Assembly (NCBI GenBank): GCA_964412285.1
Contig: CAYPOE010000001.1
Location: 1 to 31,078, forward strand
DNA length: 31,078 bases
Reading direction: 5' to 3'
From: an uncultured Eubacteriales bacterium
GTDB taxonomy: Bacteria; Bacillota; Clostridia; Monoglobales; CAYZNM01
Every line of letters starts with the position of its first letter. The first letter of the stretch is position 1. Both the position numbers and the translations under genes were made by a program. Shown in pieces: positions 14,228 to 16,916 of this stretch. The notes beneath the pieces were generated by a model, which was not told the DNA's origin, made no database searches, and saw nothing but the letters and a program-made list of their open reading frames with translations.

Positions 14228-15015
14228 GACACATGAATAAAGATAAGAGTATATTGCTGCAAAAGAAGCTGTTCGTACTCGACATGGACGGCACGATCTA
14301 CCTCGGCGATCGACTGCTCGATACGACGCCGCGCTTCTTCGGCGCACTGCGTCGCAATGGGCAGGATTTCGTCTGCTTCACGAACAATTCCTCCAAGGGC
14401 GCATCCGACTACGTCGCCAAACTGTCGCGCATGGGCATCACGGGTTGTGACGTGATCACATCGGGCGACGTGACCATCGACTACCTCCAGCGCATTCACG
14501 GGGGCCAGTCTGTGTATCTGCTCGGTACGCCGTCGCTGCGCGCATCGTTCGTGGCGGCCGGGATACGCGTGACCGACGATACGCCCGACGTCGTCGTCGT
14601 CGGCTTCGACACCACGCTCGTATACGAGCGATTGAGCGCGGCGTGCCACTACATCCGGGGCGGTGCGACGTTTGTCGCGACGCACCTCGACGTGAACTGT
14701 CCGACAGAGGATGGGTTCATACCCGACTGCGGTGCGATCTGCGCGGCGATTGCGCTCTCGACGGGCGCGTCGCCCAAATACCTCGGCAAGCCGTTCGTTG
14801 AGACCGTCGACGCGATCGTGAACGCGACGGGTGTGCAGAAATCCGACATGGTCTTCGTCGGCGACCGGCTCTACACCGACATCGCGACGGGCTACAACAA
14901 CGGCATTACGACGGTACTCGTGCTGACAGGGGAGACAACGGTCGACGACCTCGCGCACTCGGAGATTCAACCCGACTTCGTCTGCAACTCCTTAGGAGAC
15001 CTATTCGATGAATAA
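14224..15015 (+). CDS. HAD-IIA family phosphatase (NagD/AraL-like)
   Basis: DMDGTIY, TNNSS, GKP and GDRLYTDI motifs. GTGA overlap with the egsA stop; ATG 14233 is an alternative start. Confidence 0.9.
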   Translation: MRHMNKDKSILLQKKLFVLDMDGTIYLGDRLLDTTPRFFGALRRNGQDFVCFTNNSSKGASDYVAKLSRMGITGCDVITSGDVTIDYLQRIHGGQSVYLLGTPSLRASFVAAGIRVTDDTPDVVVVGFDTTLVYERLSAACHYIRGGATFVATHLDVNCPTEDGFIPDCGAICAAIALSTGASPKYLGKPFVETVDAIVNATGVQKSDMVFVGDRLYTDIATGYNNGITTVLVLTGETTVDDLAHSEIQPDFVCNSLGDLFDE

Positions 15016-16153
15016 GCGAAACCTCATCATCGCCTGCATGGCGGGCGGACTCTTCTTCTTCCCACTCTATACCTACGTGCCCATCCTCTCGACCTACGCC
15101 GGATCGCTCGGCGCGTCGCTGTCGATGATCGGTCTGATCGGCGGCGCGTACGGCTTCTCACAGATGGTCGTGCGACTGCCGATGGGCATCTGGTCGGACA
15201 AGGTCGGTCGTCGCAAGCCGTTCGTACTCGGCGCAGTCTGCATGGGACTGCTGTCATCGCTGCTCGTCGTACTCGTGCAGTCGCCCGTGTCGCTGTTCAT
15301 CTGCCGCATCCTCGCGGGATTCGCGGCGGCGGGTTGGGTGCAGATGAGCGTGCTGTTCGCGGAAAACTTTGCGCCCGACGATACCCCGCGTGCGATGGGC
15401 ATCCTCAACGCGTGCAACAATACGGGACAGATGGCTTCGACGCTGCTCTGCGGCGTAGTCGCCTCGGCGTGGGGTGAACTCAGTACGTTCTGGCTCGGCG
15501 TGATCTCGGCGGCGCTCGTACTTATCCCCGTCACACTCCTGCACGAGCGCGTCGAGAAACGCGAACCACTCAAACTCCGCGCACTGCTGTCGGTCGCGGC
15601 CGAAAAGCCTGTGCTCGTCGCGACGATCCTCGCGACGCTCGCGCAGTTCATCACGTTCGCGACGATCTACGGCTTCAACCCCATCGTCGCGCGCAACCTC
15701 GGCGCAAGCAGCCTCGAACTCTCAATCCTGACCGCGATCAATACGTTGCCCGGCATCGGTGGCGCCATCCTCTGCGGACGCATCGCCAAACGCTTTGGCG
15801 ACAAGTATCCGCTGTTCGTGGGCATGGCTGTGACGGCGCTGCTGTGTTTTGTCACACCGTACGCGCCGGGCGTTTGGGCGCTCTATGGGATACAGGCGAC
15901 GTCGGGATTCTTCCGCGGGTTGACCTTCGCGCTGCTCATGGGACTCGTCATCCGCAAGGTCGAGCAGAAGCGCCGCGCGACGGCGATGGGATTCTTTCAA
16001 GCCGTATACGGCCTCGGCATGTTCGCAGGCCCCGCGGTTGTGGGACTGCTCAGCGACCTCGGCGGCTTGCCGTTTGGGTTCGCGGCAACCGGCATCCTCG
16101 GCGCACTGACGGCGGTTGGTATTCTGCTGCTGAATTTCAAGGATATGGCGTAA
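15008..16153 (+). CDS. MFS transporter
   Basis: About 12 hydrophobic segments, GIWSDKVGRR loop motif; overlaps the HAD gene stop. Confidence 0.88.
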   Translation: MNKRNLIIACMAGGLFFFPLYTYVPILSTYAGSLGASLSMIGLIGGAYGFSQMVVRLPMGIWSDKVGRRKPFVLGAVCMGLLSSLLVVLVQSPVSLFICRILAGFAAAGWVQMSVLFAENFAPDDTPRAMGILNACNNTGQMASTLLCGVVASAWGELSTFWLGVISAALVLIPVTLLHERVEKREPLKLRALLSVAAEKPVLVATILATLAQFITFATIYGFNPIVARNLGASSLELSILTAINTLPGIGGAILCGRIAKRFGDKYPLFVGMAVTALLCFVTPYAPGVWALYGIQATSGFFRGLTFALLMGLVIRKVEQKRRATAMGFFQAVYGLGMFAGPAVVGLLSDLGGLPFGFAATGILGALTAVGILLLNFKDMA

Positions 16154-16183: not shown

Positions 16184-16212
16184 TTGATATTTGTCTATGT
16201 ATGTAGTATAAT
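16184..16212 (+). promoter_or_regulatory. Promoter of the putative type I toxin mRNA
   Basis: TTGATA (16184-16189), 17 nt, TATAAT (16207-16212). Confidence 0.75.
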
Positions 16213-16270
16213 ATTCGCAAGAGCTATAGCAGTCTTGTACGGTTGGGCGGTAACGGTCTGGAGGATTAAT

Positions 16271-16320
16271 TCCGAAGGATGGTGATGCCCTTGGATGTTT
16301 AGCACCTCCTTCGGATTTTT
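16271..16320 (+). promoter_or_regulatory. Toxin 5' leader hairpin containing an anti-SD, followed by T5
   Basis: TCCGAAGGA-T-GGTG (16271-16284) pairs with CACC-TCCTTCGGA (16303-16315). CACCTCCTT is also the exact complement of the downstream SD AAGGAGGTG (16326-16334). Confidence 0.65.
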
Positions 16321-16339
16321 GGTGAAAGGAGGTGGCAGC

Positions 16340-16465
16340 ATGAGTGTGGTGGACGTTATTAAGTTGATAGCTGTTTTCGCATGTATGCACTGGTTTGAGA
16401 TAGTGTATATCGCAGGCTATGTAGTCGACTTAATCAAAAACAACCGCCCCTACACCAAAGGTTAA
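16340..16465 (+). CDS. Putative type I TA small membrane toxin, 41 aa (MSVVDVIKLIAVFACMHWFEIVYIAGYVVDLIKNNRPYTKG)
   Basis: Very strong SD GAAAGGAGGTG, hydrophobic body with a basic C-terminus, own promoter, convergent antisense promoter. Absent from the ORF track because it is short. Confidence 0.65.
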   Translation: MSVVDVIKLIAVFACMHWFEIVYIAGYVVDLIKNNRPYTKG

Positions 16466-16475
16466 CGGTTGTTTT
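16436..16475. terminator. Bidirectional terminator-like hairpin; likely antitoxin RNA terminator
   Basis: AAAACAACCG (16437-16446) / CGGTTGTTTT (16466-16475), 10-bp stem; A5 at 16436-16440 gives a U-run on the minus strand. Confidence 0.7.
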
Positions 16476-16540
16476 ATTGGCAATAAAATTTAATTCTTTC
16501 AAACCGTGAAACCTAATCATAAAAGATTGCGAAACTCTGG

Positions 16541-16564
16541 CGAGAAACGTTCCAGCGTTTCTCG
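16541..16564. terminator. Hairpin that may end the toxin mRNA (+) and form the 5' stem of the antitoxin (-)
   Basis: CGAGAAACG-TTCCAG-CGTTTCTCG, perfect 9-bp stem, followed on + by TTACATATTT. Confidence 0.55.
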
Positions 16565-16574
16565 TTACATATTT

Positions 16575-16603
16575 AGTATAGCCCATTGTGGCGCATTTGT
16601 CAA
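16575..16603 (-). promoter_or_regulatory. Antisense promoter
   Basis: On the minus strand: TTGACA (16603-16598), 17 nt, TATACT (16580-16575). No plausible protein start follows it before the terminator. Confidence 0.8.
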
Positions 16604-16674: not shown

Positions 16675-16703
16675 TTGACAACGTTCGTGCAATATGATAT
16701 ACT
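16675..16703 (+). promoter_or_regulatory. Promoter of the leader-MFS-iorAB-paaK operon
   Basis: TTGACA (16675-16680), 17 nt, TATACT (16698-16703) with extended TG (16695-16696). Confidence 0.85.
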
Positions 16704-16745
16704 ACCACCGTAAGTGAAGCTATACGTTACGCTCGGAGGCAGAAC

Positions 16746-16835
16746 ATGTATCGTCGTATCGTGAACTTTACAGCGTGGTCTTGGCGAGGCTTTGTTGATA
16801 CAACAAGGTCGGTTTGCCATGCTCCGGCGGTATGA
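16746..16835 (+). CDS. Trp-containing attenuator leader peptide, 29 aa (MYRRIVNFTAWSWRGFVDTTRSVCHAPAV)
   Basis: SD GGAGG at 16735-16739; TGG-TCT-TGG at 16776-16784; lies between the promoter and an intrinsic terminator. Confidence 0.75.
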   Translation: MYRRIVNFTAWSWRGFVDTTRSVCHAPAV

Positions 16836-16878
16836 TGACATGTGATAGATAGATCAGTCGATTCATCACACGATAATC

Positions 16879-16916
16879 AACCTCCCGACTCATGCAAATG
16901 GGCCGGGAGGTTTTTT
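16879..16916 (+). terminator. Attenuator terminator in the 5' leader
   Basis: AACCTCCCG (16879-16887) / CGGGAGGTT (16904-16912), inner stem with GCAA loop, T6 tail; located upstream of the first structural gene. Confidence 0.88.

Follow-up and report, generated by a model that had tools for sequence, protein, structure and literature searches.

The window analysed here (the whole stretch of DNA, 31,078 nucleotides) probably carries, at positions 16184-16603, a type I toxin-antitoxin module of an unnamed family, in which a layout like that of txpA/RatA would be combined with a 5'-3' closure of the mRNA like that of hok and AapA1. The module encodes a 41-aa membrane peptide that is probably toxic and is probably silenced by an opposing small RNA. 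A convergent toxin ORF and antisense gene had already been proposed by a sequence-only reading of this DNA, and the comparative sequence evidence now argues further for that proposal: the locus is a multicopy unit with covarying structures, a sequestered SD and a dN/dS below 1. More distant relatives of the module also occur well beyond the genus.

Organization of the putative module

The stretch from 16184 to 16603 has a GC content of 38-46%, versus about 62% in the flanking genes, and a scan found five promoter-like sites in it, versus 1.6 +/- 1.3 in shuffles. The promoters, 5' stem, SD, ORF and hairpin listed by the sequence-only reading were all recovered by scan and translation where it had placed them, except that the start of the 41-aa ORF was off by about one base and lies at 16340. 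These elements go beyond chance, being kept in register in about 11 paralogous copies and in 12 copies of a sister species. The features are the following.

16184-16212, + strand: promoter of the toxin mRNA, TTGATA-17-TATAAT (scan, 11/12 matches)
16218-16237, + strand: 5'-terminal hairpin of the toxin mRNA, CAAGA...TCTTG (RNAalifold, 8 copies)
16232-16257, + strand: 5' box of a long-distance interaction (LDI), containing UUGGGCGG and ACGGU and complementary to 16503-16530
16245-16290, + strand: local alternative stem, GGGCG (16245-16249) with UGCCC (16286-16290), around a variable hairpin
16303-16334, + strand: anti-SD CACCTCCTTC (16303-16312) paired to the SD GAAAGGAGGTG (16324-16334), from MFE and consensus folds
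16340-16462, stop 16463-16465, + strand: 41-aa ORF, putative toxin (P0001), from translation
about 16436-16476, both strands: first hairpin, AAACAACCG/CGGTTGTTT (16438-16474), kept in all copies of both species
16503-16530, + strand: 3' box of the LDI, in the toxin 3'UTR
16541-16579, + strand: second hairpin, CGAGAAACG/CGTTTCTCG (16541-16564), then TTACATATTTAGTAT; terminator-like in the scan
16603-16575, - strand: promoter of the antisense RNA, TTGACA-17-TATACT (scan, 11/12 matches)
16430-16568, - strand: antisense RNA of about 137 nt, putative antitoxin, with a 5' hairpin, a middle stem and a terminator (ends inferred)

The toxin -35 and -10 are kept in all complete copies of this genome, and the toxin TSS would lie at about 16219. 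Behind it, the 5'-terminal stem is retained in the RNAalifold of eight copies, with CG/UA exchanges; its 3' arm doubles as part of the LDI and pairs with the 3' box in full-length folds. When the short form of the mRNA was folded, the GGGCG:UGCCC stem appeared in eight of eight copies of this genome, around an inner hairpin that varies and covaries, and it may compete against the LDI for the 5' box.

The SD lies 7 nt upstream of the ATG. Its pairing with the anti-SD is kept in the sister species and in a family of shorter modules described below (the short family), and in full-length MFE folds the SD is bound by the local anti-SD in 16 of 18 copies, the exceptions being C1 and C47. Translation of the toxin is predicted to be blocked, with the SD sequestered by the anti-SD hairpin in the folds of all three clades. 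In silico, however, the SD remains paired in both the closed and the truncated forms of the mRNA, so that the folds demonstrate no ON state. Two further candidate elements were rejected: a leader mini-ORF (ATG GTG ATG CCC...), which is not conserved in other copies, and a 'decoy SD', whose pairing with the anti-SD occurs in the full-length MFE of copy C1 only.

The two hairpins and the putative antisense RNA

The stop codon of the ORF sits in the loop of the first hairpin. On the - strand the stem is lengthened by G-U pairs and is followed by a U-run; the + strand mostly lacks a U-run in the sister-species copies. This hairpin had been read as bidirectional and shared by both RNAs. Its conservation held up, but given the LDI it probably terminates the antisense RNA alone, and a toxin transcript would probably meet it as an internal hairpin, a weak terminator or a processing stop.

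The full-length toxin mRNA probably ends at the second hairpin, whose complement forms the 5' hairpin of the antisense RNA. The stem persists between the species with its sequence replaced (CG to GC in 12 sequences, UA to CG in 11). On the + strand the U-run after it is poor in most copies of this genome; UUUUU follows the equivalent hairpin in the short family.

The antisense -35 and -10 are kept in all the sister-species copies and in every copy of this genome whose DNA reaches that far, and the antisense TSS would lie at about 16568. Consensus folds of the antisense RNA from 10 and from 23 copies both contain compensatory pairs, and the covariance model (CM) of this RNA, R1, scored 105-140 bits on all copies of both species. 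Compensatory changes are likewise found in the leader, the SD/anti-SD hairpin, the terminator and the antisense 5' hairpin. A promoter, a covarying structured body and a terminator, all kept in 23 copies, point to a cis-encoded antisense RNA gene, which overlaps the toxin mRNA only in its last 10 codons and its 3'UTR. An antisense RNA of about 135 nt lying over the toxin 3' end had been expected; the size of the RNA gene stands, while the overlap needs revision, as it probably extends over the full antisense length.

Predicted pairing between the ends of the toxin mRNA

The duplex between 16232-16257 and 16503-16530 has a cognate mean of -24.6 kcal/mol versus -11.4 +/- 3.3 for a shuffled partner, although the cognate energy is barely better than the non-cognate one (-24.6 versus -21.7). 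The RNAalifold consensus contains 19 LDI pairs that are 94% paired, six of them with changes on both sides, versus 22-45% paired in slid controls. In one copy, a C-to-T change in one box is matched by a G-to-A change in the other. The core of the 3' box, CCGTGAAACCTAATC, is conserved in this genome and in the sister species. Among single-sequence MFE folds, the LDI is present in copy C1 and in all sister-species copies, and copy C251 has a short end-to-end pairing only; the automated count of LDI pairs in these folds was unreliable for some other copies of this genome. The short family has an LDI of different sequence but on the same principle (23 pairs, 99% paired, six covarying). Energies, MFE folds and covarying consensus folds therefore support a predicted 5'-3' closure of the mRNA in three clades.

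Because the 5'UTR pairs with a box downstream of the first hairpin, the toxin mRNA would have to be longer and to read through that hairpin, probably as far as the second (16541-16564). In that case the toxin 3'UTR would contain the antisense RNA from end to end, and, as the 3' box read on the - strand nearly repeats the 5'UTR box, the antisense RNA would include a near-copy of that box. A par-like pairing in trans, in which the middle of the antisense RNA would bind the toxin mRNA at its leader or start region, was also considered and was rejected, as it is not conserved across copies.

The 41-aa peptide

An AF2 model of the peptide (pLDDT 84.7) predicts a helix over residues 3-35 with a kink at His17. 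The TM check that had been suggested for it gave a best 19-aa Kyte-Doolittle window of 1.85 at residues 6-24, which is TM-grade, and the GRAVY is 0.76; this hydrophobicity is below that of typical type I toxins. Polar residues are conserved in mid-helix (H17, W18, D/E20), and C15, H17, W18 and Y27 are conserved as polar or aromatic positions. The PXXXG motif is absent from the peptides of this genome and of the sister species.

The nine intact paralogues in this genome are 49-73% identical, with zero indels, and the second codon position is the least variable among the copies. The dN/dS of the ORF is 0.35 in this genome and 0.63 in the sister species. Conservation of the ORF in homologous loci thus held only in part: the frame is open and free of indels in nine copies, but the core is replaced in the sister species. 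As the core is nearly unrelated between the species while the RNA elements are kept, and as dN/dS there is 0.63, selection may act mainly on the RNA.

A similar caution applies to the basic tail, KNNRPYTKG (KNNRPxxKG among the copies). The tail is indeed encoded, as had been noted, but by the arm and loop of the first hairpin: the nine C-terminal residues are dictated by the terminator, so that their conservation may reflect RNA and not protein. The tail has the look of an addition, by stop loss, to an ancestral peptide that was shorter.

Copies in the genus

The paralogous loci for which a search had been proposed do exist. The genome of this gut bacterium (2.39 Mb, 380 contigs) contains nine intact and two decayed copies of the module, with 74-79% DNA identity among them, and the sister species, the genus' only other genome, contains 12. 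Homology runs from the toxin -35 exactly to the antisense -35, and among the aligned copy ends neither terminal inverted repeats nor target duplications were noticed. The copies of this genome lie between ordinary housekeeping genes, not in prophages or plasmids, and blastn against phages and plasmids gave no match. Some copies occur as tandem pairs, and in two the toxin ORF has decayed beside an intact antisense gene, leaving orphan antisense genes.

The sister-species copies surfaced only through DNA search. They have the same RNA elements and the same 41-codon frame, open in 10 of the 11 ORFs recovered, with a peptide core that is very different from, and almost unrelated to, that of this genome. 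Both MFS genes that flank the module in the window are absent from the sister species.

The short family and wider distribution

CM search and blastn linked both 41-codon sets to a shorter module with a 22-25 aa peptide, MDNEYIISFMIILLLLVISIKK, which occurs in 41 of 151 genomes from the order and in 47 of 399 sampled from the class (about 12%). Its peptides have an acidic N-terminus, about 16 hydrophobic residues and then KK, and they look like classical type I toxins; the 22-aa peptide is conserved across many genera. Judged from these sequences, the candidate module family is undescribed and is widespread in Clostridia.

The earlier view that the peptide belongs to no named family was borne out, since Pfam, NCBIfam and Rfam gave no match for the window module (Pfam none even at E <= 10), for the peptides related to it or for the single short-family locus that was scanned. 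Its description as unannotated was too strong. The ORF, though it has no family name, is already called as an unnamed product in a large protein collection: the 5.8-billion-protein word index returned only this self-match, and 1.84 billion representatives returned only a paralogue of the same genome. Exact-sequence look-ups in a 15-billion-protein collection did not find the short-family peptides. Pattern scans of GTDB genomes and JGI metagenomes for the 41-aa peptide gave no match, and the ESM Atlas gave no usable match. A peptide HMM, run on 60 relatives and on 151 genomes from the order and 401 from the class, found nothing beyond this genome, a null result that is misleading because the peptide core diverges too fast. 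The roughly 240 loci obtained when genome and metagenome collections were scanned for the terminator pattern were essentially all unrelated terminators and were set aside.

Discussion

Two predicted, convergent sigma-70 promoters bracket the module. In the mechanism that we propose, the primary toxin transcript, about 350 nt long (~16219 to ~16575), would read through the first hairpin and close on itself by 5'-3' pairing, like the hok and aapA1 mRNAs, into a stable and poorly translated form. The antisense RNA (~16568 to ~16430), whose whole length is complementary to the 3'UTR and the final 10 codons of the toxin mRNA, would pair with it into a long duplex for RNase III. Its near-copy of the 5'UTR box would, in addition, let it take the place of the 5' end on the 3' box, and the freed 5' end would be open to decay. 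When the antisense RNA is scarce, the mRNA would be translated, perhaps once trimmed back to the first hairpin, and the peptide would enter the membrane and arrest growth.

A broader proposal is possible, and we make it tentatively: an undescribed Clostridia superfamily would constitute a three-way RNA switch, made of an mRNA locked 5' to 3' and an antisense RNA that mimics the leader, with the 41-aa peptides as a stop-loss derivative. In such a switch, the antisense RNA inside the 3'UTR would mimic the leader box and compete for the same 3' partner, duplex cleavage would be coupled to exposure of the 5' end, and the 41-aa ORFs of this genus would represent an ORF that has grown into the terminator.

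Other explanations deserve consideration. It is unlikely that the locus is a gene for a non-toxic small membrane protein, such as a complex modulator or a stress-induced product, tuned by a cis-antisense RNA and causing neither addiction nor growth arrest. The conserved C15, H17, W18 and Y27 do suggest a specific interaction rather than plain membrane damage, no toxin family is matched, and the location of all copies in housekeeping intergenic regions, neither prophage nor plasmid, fits a cellular function of this kind. However, some 11 and 12 diverged copies per genome, with tandem pairs, would be unusual for a dedicated regulator, as would copies with a decayed ORF yet an intact antisense gene, and the peptide core has been swapped between sister species. 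A block on translation in layers (anti-SD, 5'-3' closure and antisense) is, moreover, typical of harmful products (PMC5416894).

We consider it distinctly unlikely that the locus is primarily an RNA element, either a set of convergent genes for structured sRNAs or a repeat spreading at the DNA level, with an incidental or vestigial 41-codon ORF. The peptide is far less well kept across species than the leader boxes, the terminator, the CCGTGAAGCCTAATC box and the antisense hairpin; nine C-terminal residues are set by the terminator, the sister-species dN/dS is 0.63 and homology stops exactly at the promoters, all of which would suit such an element. It would not account for a 123-nt frame that is open and indel-free in nine copies here and open in 10 of 11 in the sister species, for a second codon position that varies least, or for a 22-aa peptide kept across many genera in the short family. 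The consensus SD is invariant and ideally spaced, an anti-SD hairpin is pointless unless translation matters, and the copy ends lack noted inverted repeats or duplications. A strict par/Fst-type system, in which both RNAs end at the shared terminator and interact by loop kissing and then through direct repeats over the translation start, is hardly probable at all. The convergent promoters, common hairpin, SD-sequestering stem and 5'-end stem are conserved features of par (PMC7472228), and the leader and the antisense region share a weak direct repeat, GTGAyGCC. Yet the copies do not conserve any direct-repeat pairing between the antisense RNA and the start region; the complementarity that is conserved is inverted, joining the leader to a downstream box on the + strand, which requires a longer toxin mRNA. 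The peptides lack PXXXG and match nothing in Pfam or Rfam, and the + strand hairpin mostly lacks a U-run in the sister species.

As a probable type I toxin-antitoxin module, the locus can be compared with several known systems. It resembles txpA/RatA and bsrG/SR4 of B. subtilis (and also bsrE/SR5 and yonT/SR6) in its small hydrophobic ORF, its convergent antisense gene on the 3' side and its SD held in a stem. To our knowledge, 5'-3' mRNA closure is not a feature of the txpA/bsrG-type systems, and searches of Pfam, NCBIfam and Rfam detected no sequence or profile similarity to the TxpA/RatA and BsrG/SR4 families in either peptide or RNA. The B. subtilis systems lie mostly in prophage-like regions, unlike the copies here between housekeeping genes. 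Their antisense RNAs overlap the mRNA only partly (PMC8594479), whereas the one described here would sit entirely within the toxin 3'UTR. RNase III cleaves the 3'-overlap duplexes of txpA/RatA (PMC6563280); similar cleavage would be expected for this module (PMC6563280, PMC8594479), and the enzyme is encoded in this genome.

With par (Fst/RNA II of Enterococcus faecalis pAD1), the module shares convergent promoters, a common terminator hairpin, an SD-sequestering 5' stem-loop and a 5'-end helix, the last of which in par hides the extreme 5' end (PMC7472228). Unlike par/Fst/Ldr, it has no direct repeats of the DRa/DRb type that would place the antisense RNA over the start site, no PXXXG, and no match to the Fst Pfam family or in Rfam; unlike in par, its ORF extends into the terminator loop. 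Closer in phylogeny are the Clostridioides difficile modules CD2517.1/RCd8, CD2907.1/RCd9 and CD0956.2/RCd10 and their prophage copies, which belong to the same bacterial class. Like the module here, these are convergent overlapping genes, present in many copies, whose formerly unannotated peptides have a hydrophobic N-terminus and a Lys-rich C-terminus (PMC6563280). The C. difficile copies are tied to prophages and CRISPR arrays, whereas the copies described here are dispersed among core genes; the passages of that review considered here do not mention 5'-3' mRNA closure. No homology to them was detectable, and our profile and DNA searches matched only this lineage's own superfamily.

The nearest parallels to the predicted mRNA closure are found in hok/Sok (plasmid R1, E. 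coli) and aapA1/IsoA1 (Helicobacter pylori), whose full-length mRNAs are closed by 5'/3' pairing. For aapA1, pairing of the 5' and 3' ends, a poorly efficient internal terminator and 3' processing have been described (PMC5416894). The module would share with hok and aapA1 an inefficient internal terminator-like hairpin and an inert full-length form presumed to need 3' trimming, and it also has multiple chromosomal copies together with decayed 'ghost' copies (PMC5416894). Both are Gram-negative families with no sequence relation to it. Their antisense RNAs target the processed mRNA at its 5' leader or start region, whereas here the target would be the 3'UTR and the end of the ORF, and the antisense RNA would mimic the 5' box. 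Truncation at the 3' end leaves the SD paired in silico, unlike in hok and aapA1, and a mok-like overlapping frame, as in hok, was not seen.

The module occurs in about one in eight of the sampled Clostridia genomes and in at least 10 copies per genome in this genus, and its conserved box pairs provide an RNA-structure signature for annotating such loci in gut metagenomes. It also offers a compact and mutable system for the cooperation of mRNA folding, RNase III and 5'-end protection. If our reading is correct, a major Gram-positive family would be added to the type I systems, and the Firmicutes would possess a counterpart to the Gram-negative hok/aapA1 closure, combined with a leader-mimicking antisense RNA on the 3' side.

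Anatomy and setting of the module

All the features that the sequence-only reading had described (promoters, stem, SD, ORF and hairpin) were found in the sequence. They make up a putative toxin gene for a 41-aa peptide (+ strand) and a putative antitoxin gene for an antisense RNA of about 137 nt (- strand).

Features of the window copy
16184-16212, +: putative toxin promoter, TTGATA-17-TATAAT
16218-16237, +: 5' stem
16324-16334, +: SD, GAAAGGAGGTG
16340-16462, +: 41-aa ORF, with its stop codon at 16463-16465
16438-16474: first hairpin, AAACAACCG/CGGTTGTTT, with the stop codon inside the loop
16541-16564, +: second hairpin, followed by UUACAUAUUU, terminator-like in the feature scan
16603-16575, -: antisense promoter, TTGACA-17-TATACT

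On one side of the module is an MFS transporter gene (15008-16153) and on the other the leader of an MFS-iorAB operon; GC content across the module is 38-46%, down from about 62%. A mini-ORF of seven codons in the toxin leader (ATG GTG ATG CCC TTG GAT GTT TAG, 16278-16301) is not kept in paralogues and is probably no gene. A leader precedes the MFS-iorAB operon, together with a third strong promoter (TTGACA-17-TATACT plus a TG extension, 16675-16703); toxin read-through transcripts would enter this region (16675-16916).

Paralogous and sister-species copies

The paralogue search suggested by the earlier reading yielded eight further complete copies, as well as fragments, in the window's own genome (G000; 2.39 Mb, 380 contigs, 90.5% complete), and the peptide and the 431-bp DNA, used as separate queries, each recovered eight. 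This copy number is a minimum because many copies sit at contig ends, where the repeats probably break the assembly. On contig C328 (L010:1434-2250), two copies follow each other in tandem at a distance of about 50 bp, and the contig end cuts off the second. Flanking genes include purN/purM, a DAP dehydrogenase fusion, UPF0182, methyltransferases, a PMT glycosyltransferase, ABC transporters, MnmA and an M50 peptidase with ScpA, and no phage or plasmid genes were seen among these flanks. Blastn of the module against phages and plasmids gave no match.

In a MAFFT alignment, homology among the G000 copies runs from the toxin -35 to the antisense -35. The ORF is conserved: it is intact in nine copies (49-73% identity, no indels), with 41 codons in eight of the nine and 45 in C88, where the stop is lost; the C47 copy is more divergent. 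Two other copies have a decayed ORF beside an intact antisense gene and promoter, one with an in-frame TGA and a replaced 5' half (C334, L264:448-724) and one lacking the 5' half (C114, L263:1-338). Judged by sequence, these are orphan antitoxin-like sRNA genes.

Peptide-based searches found no relatives beyond G000. A DNA search of the sister species G001, the genus's single further genome, matched the terminator and antisense part, and 12 full copies were identified there. Shared with G000 are the leader core UUGGGC...GCGG...GUGAYGCCC, the anti-SD/SD pair, an ORF of exactly 41 codons, the terminator and the CCGTGAAGCCTAATC box, as well as the antisense promoter and the placement of the antisense 5' hairpin. 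The sequence of that 5' hairpin is wholly replaced and its pairs are the same (CG to GC in 12 sequences, UA to CG in 11); in the first hairpin, the + strand U-run is mostly missing. Upstream of the G001 toxin promoters we also noted repeated TTTGTAAC / TTGTAAC motifs (TTTGTAACACAATTGTAAC; e.g. L266:1190-1260), which could serve as a transcription-factor operator. A motif of this type also precedes a short-family copy (L289:14-60) and is absent from the G000 copies.

The peptide

Residues M1, K8, C15, H17, W18, Y27 and L31-R36 are invariant across the G000 peptides, and the G001 peptides differ in their core (MTGR[DE]xVLVLAIFLVDNAPMIINAIRNMYKIYKNNRPHxKG). The ORF has a dN/dS of 0.35 in G000 (codons 2-32) and 0.63 in G001, and, from the latter value, the peptide of the 41-codon lineage may be less important than the RNA. 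An AF2 model from an eight-sequence alignment has helices at residues 3-16 and 18-35 (pLDDT 84.7), and the best 19-residue Kyte-Doolittle window is 1.85. Pfam, NCBIfam and Rfam gave no match in the window module, in line with the earlier reading, which could not place the peptide in a named family; the G001 peptide is present, without a name, in a collection of 15 billion proteins.

Predicted long-distance 5'-3' pairing

We asked whether the copies share conserved repeats that link the leader to the sequence past the first hairpin. No consistent direct repeat, of the kind that a par-like mechanism would need, was found, and a consistent inverted repeat was present. In the window copy, this long-distance interaction (LDI) joins a leader box (16232-16257) to a + strand box (16503-16530). 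The mean energy of cognate duplexes is -24.6 kcal/mol (range -14 to -34), against -11.4 +/- 3.3 for shuffled partners; non-cognate pairs within the family average -21.7 kcal/mol, so copy-specific co-evolution is slight. In an RNAalifold consensus of 18 copies from both species, the LDI has 19 pairs, 94% paired, six of them with changes on both sides, compared with 22-45% paired when the partner was slid by 1-3 columns. Furthermore, matched changes in three G001 copies turn an interrupted helix into 16 continuous pairs. The LDI is in the minimum free energy structure of the window copy and of all G001 full-length RNAs; for some of the other G000 copies the automated count is unreliable, and in C251 only a short end-to-end pairing is seen.

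Because the LDI is conserved, the toxin mRNA would have to run beyond the first hairpin, and the second hairpin (16541-16564) is likely its 3' end. Thus, the shared bidirectional hairpin of the sequence-only reading exists, probably without being the end of the toxin mRNA; the convergent antisense RNA proposed there to overlap the toxin 3' end would lie entirely within the toxin 3'UTR. Being complementary to the 3' box, it would bear a near-copy of the leader box.

A short family across the order and class

A covariance model of the antisense RNA, R1, scores 105-140 bits on every G000 and G001 copy and has weak matches in 11 other genomes of the order; three of these matches (L289, L292 and L290) have the same architecture with peptides of 23-25 aa. 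By blastn, this short module occurs in 41 of 151 genomes of the order (15 of 33 genera) and 47 of 399 sampled genomes of the class (33 of 217 genera). Its DNA is often 78-86% identical between genomes of different families of the class (L335-L346), far above what vertical inheritance would lead one to expect of intergenic DNA, suggesting either a recent horizontal spread or very strong constraint. The peptides, MD[NSK]EYII[SL]FMIILLLLVISIKK, were absent from the 15-billion-protein collection in exact-sequence look-ups, and Pfam, NCBIfam and Rfam gave no match for them or for the one short-family locus scanned.

Here too the ends of the RNA pair: the extreme 5' end (AAGGCAAGAC) with the 3' end (GGUCUUGCC, then UUUUU), and CGGUUAUGCCA with UGGCAUAACCG. 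Of the 23 consensus pairs (99% paired), six covary, and one copy carries a compensating C-to-T / G-to-A change.

The short-family stop, TAA, lies in the terminator 5' arm (AAAAAAUAACCGCC). The G000/G001 arm, AAAAACAACCGCC, has no stop and the ORF continues across the loop, so that the terminator encodes the KNNRPxxKG tail. One short-family copy (L346, G431:C23) has lost its stop and encodes a 40-aa peptide through the terminator, an independent parallel to the 41-aa form. A terminator pattern scan also returned metagenome contigs (L152, L183, L225) with other small hydrophobic ORFs ending in a KNNR-coding AAAAACAACCG arm, one containing ...SVYQALYLMIAFASLLISLMSLIVLIV...; these may be unrelated type I toxin candidates.

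Proposed mechanism and comparison with known type I systems

Promoters, structures, ORF and box complementarity are conserved, and from these we infer the remaining mechanism. The closed full-length toxin mRNA would be stable and poorly translated, by analogy with aapA1 and hok, whose mRNAs are documented to pair 5' to 3', to contain an inefficient internal terminator and to be trimmed at the 3' end (PMC5416894). In an in silico search for a free-SD state, neither the short mRNA form nor most of the full-length forms left the SD unpaired. The antisense RNA and toxin mRNA would form a duplex of about 135 bp, a candidate substrate for RNase III, which is encoded in the window's genome and has a precedent on such a duplex in txpA/RatA (PMC6563280). 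The antisense RNA would also release the mRNA 5' end; RNA I of par, for comparison, owes stability to a helix that hides its 5' end (PMC7472228).

The T1TAdb survey distinguishes two layouts, and in Gram-positive families the antisense RNA lies 3' of the mRNA with partial overlap. The txpA/RatA and bsrG/SR4 architecture invoked in the sequence-only reading stands for the 3'-side convergent antisense RNA; it does not extend to membership of TxpA/BsrG, which fails on profiles, and a hok/aapA-like closure is added. Membership of Fst/par fails on the PXXXG motif and direct repeats, and that of hok/aapA on antisense position. Rfam 15, Pfam, NCBIfam and the searched literature hold no earlier description of the family. 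In these modules a 3'-side antisense RNA, fully contained in the toxin 3'UTR, goes with a hok/aapA-like closure, and the sequences are unrelated; we consider it probable that they form a new family of type I toxin-antitoxin modules of hybrid regulatory design, with toxicity and both RNAs predicted.
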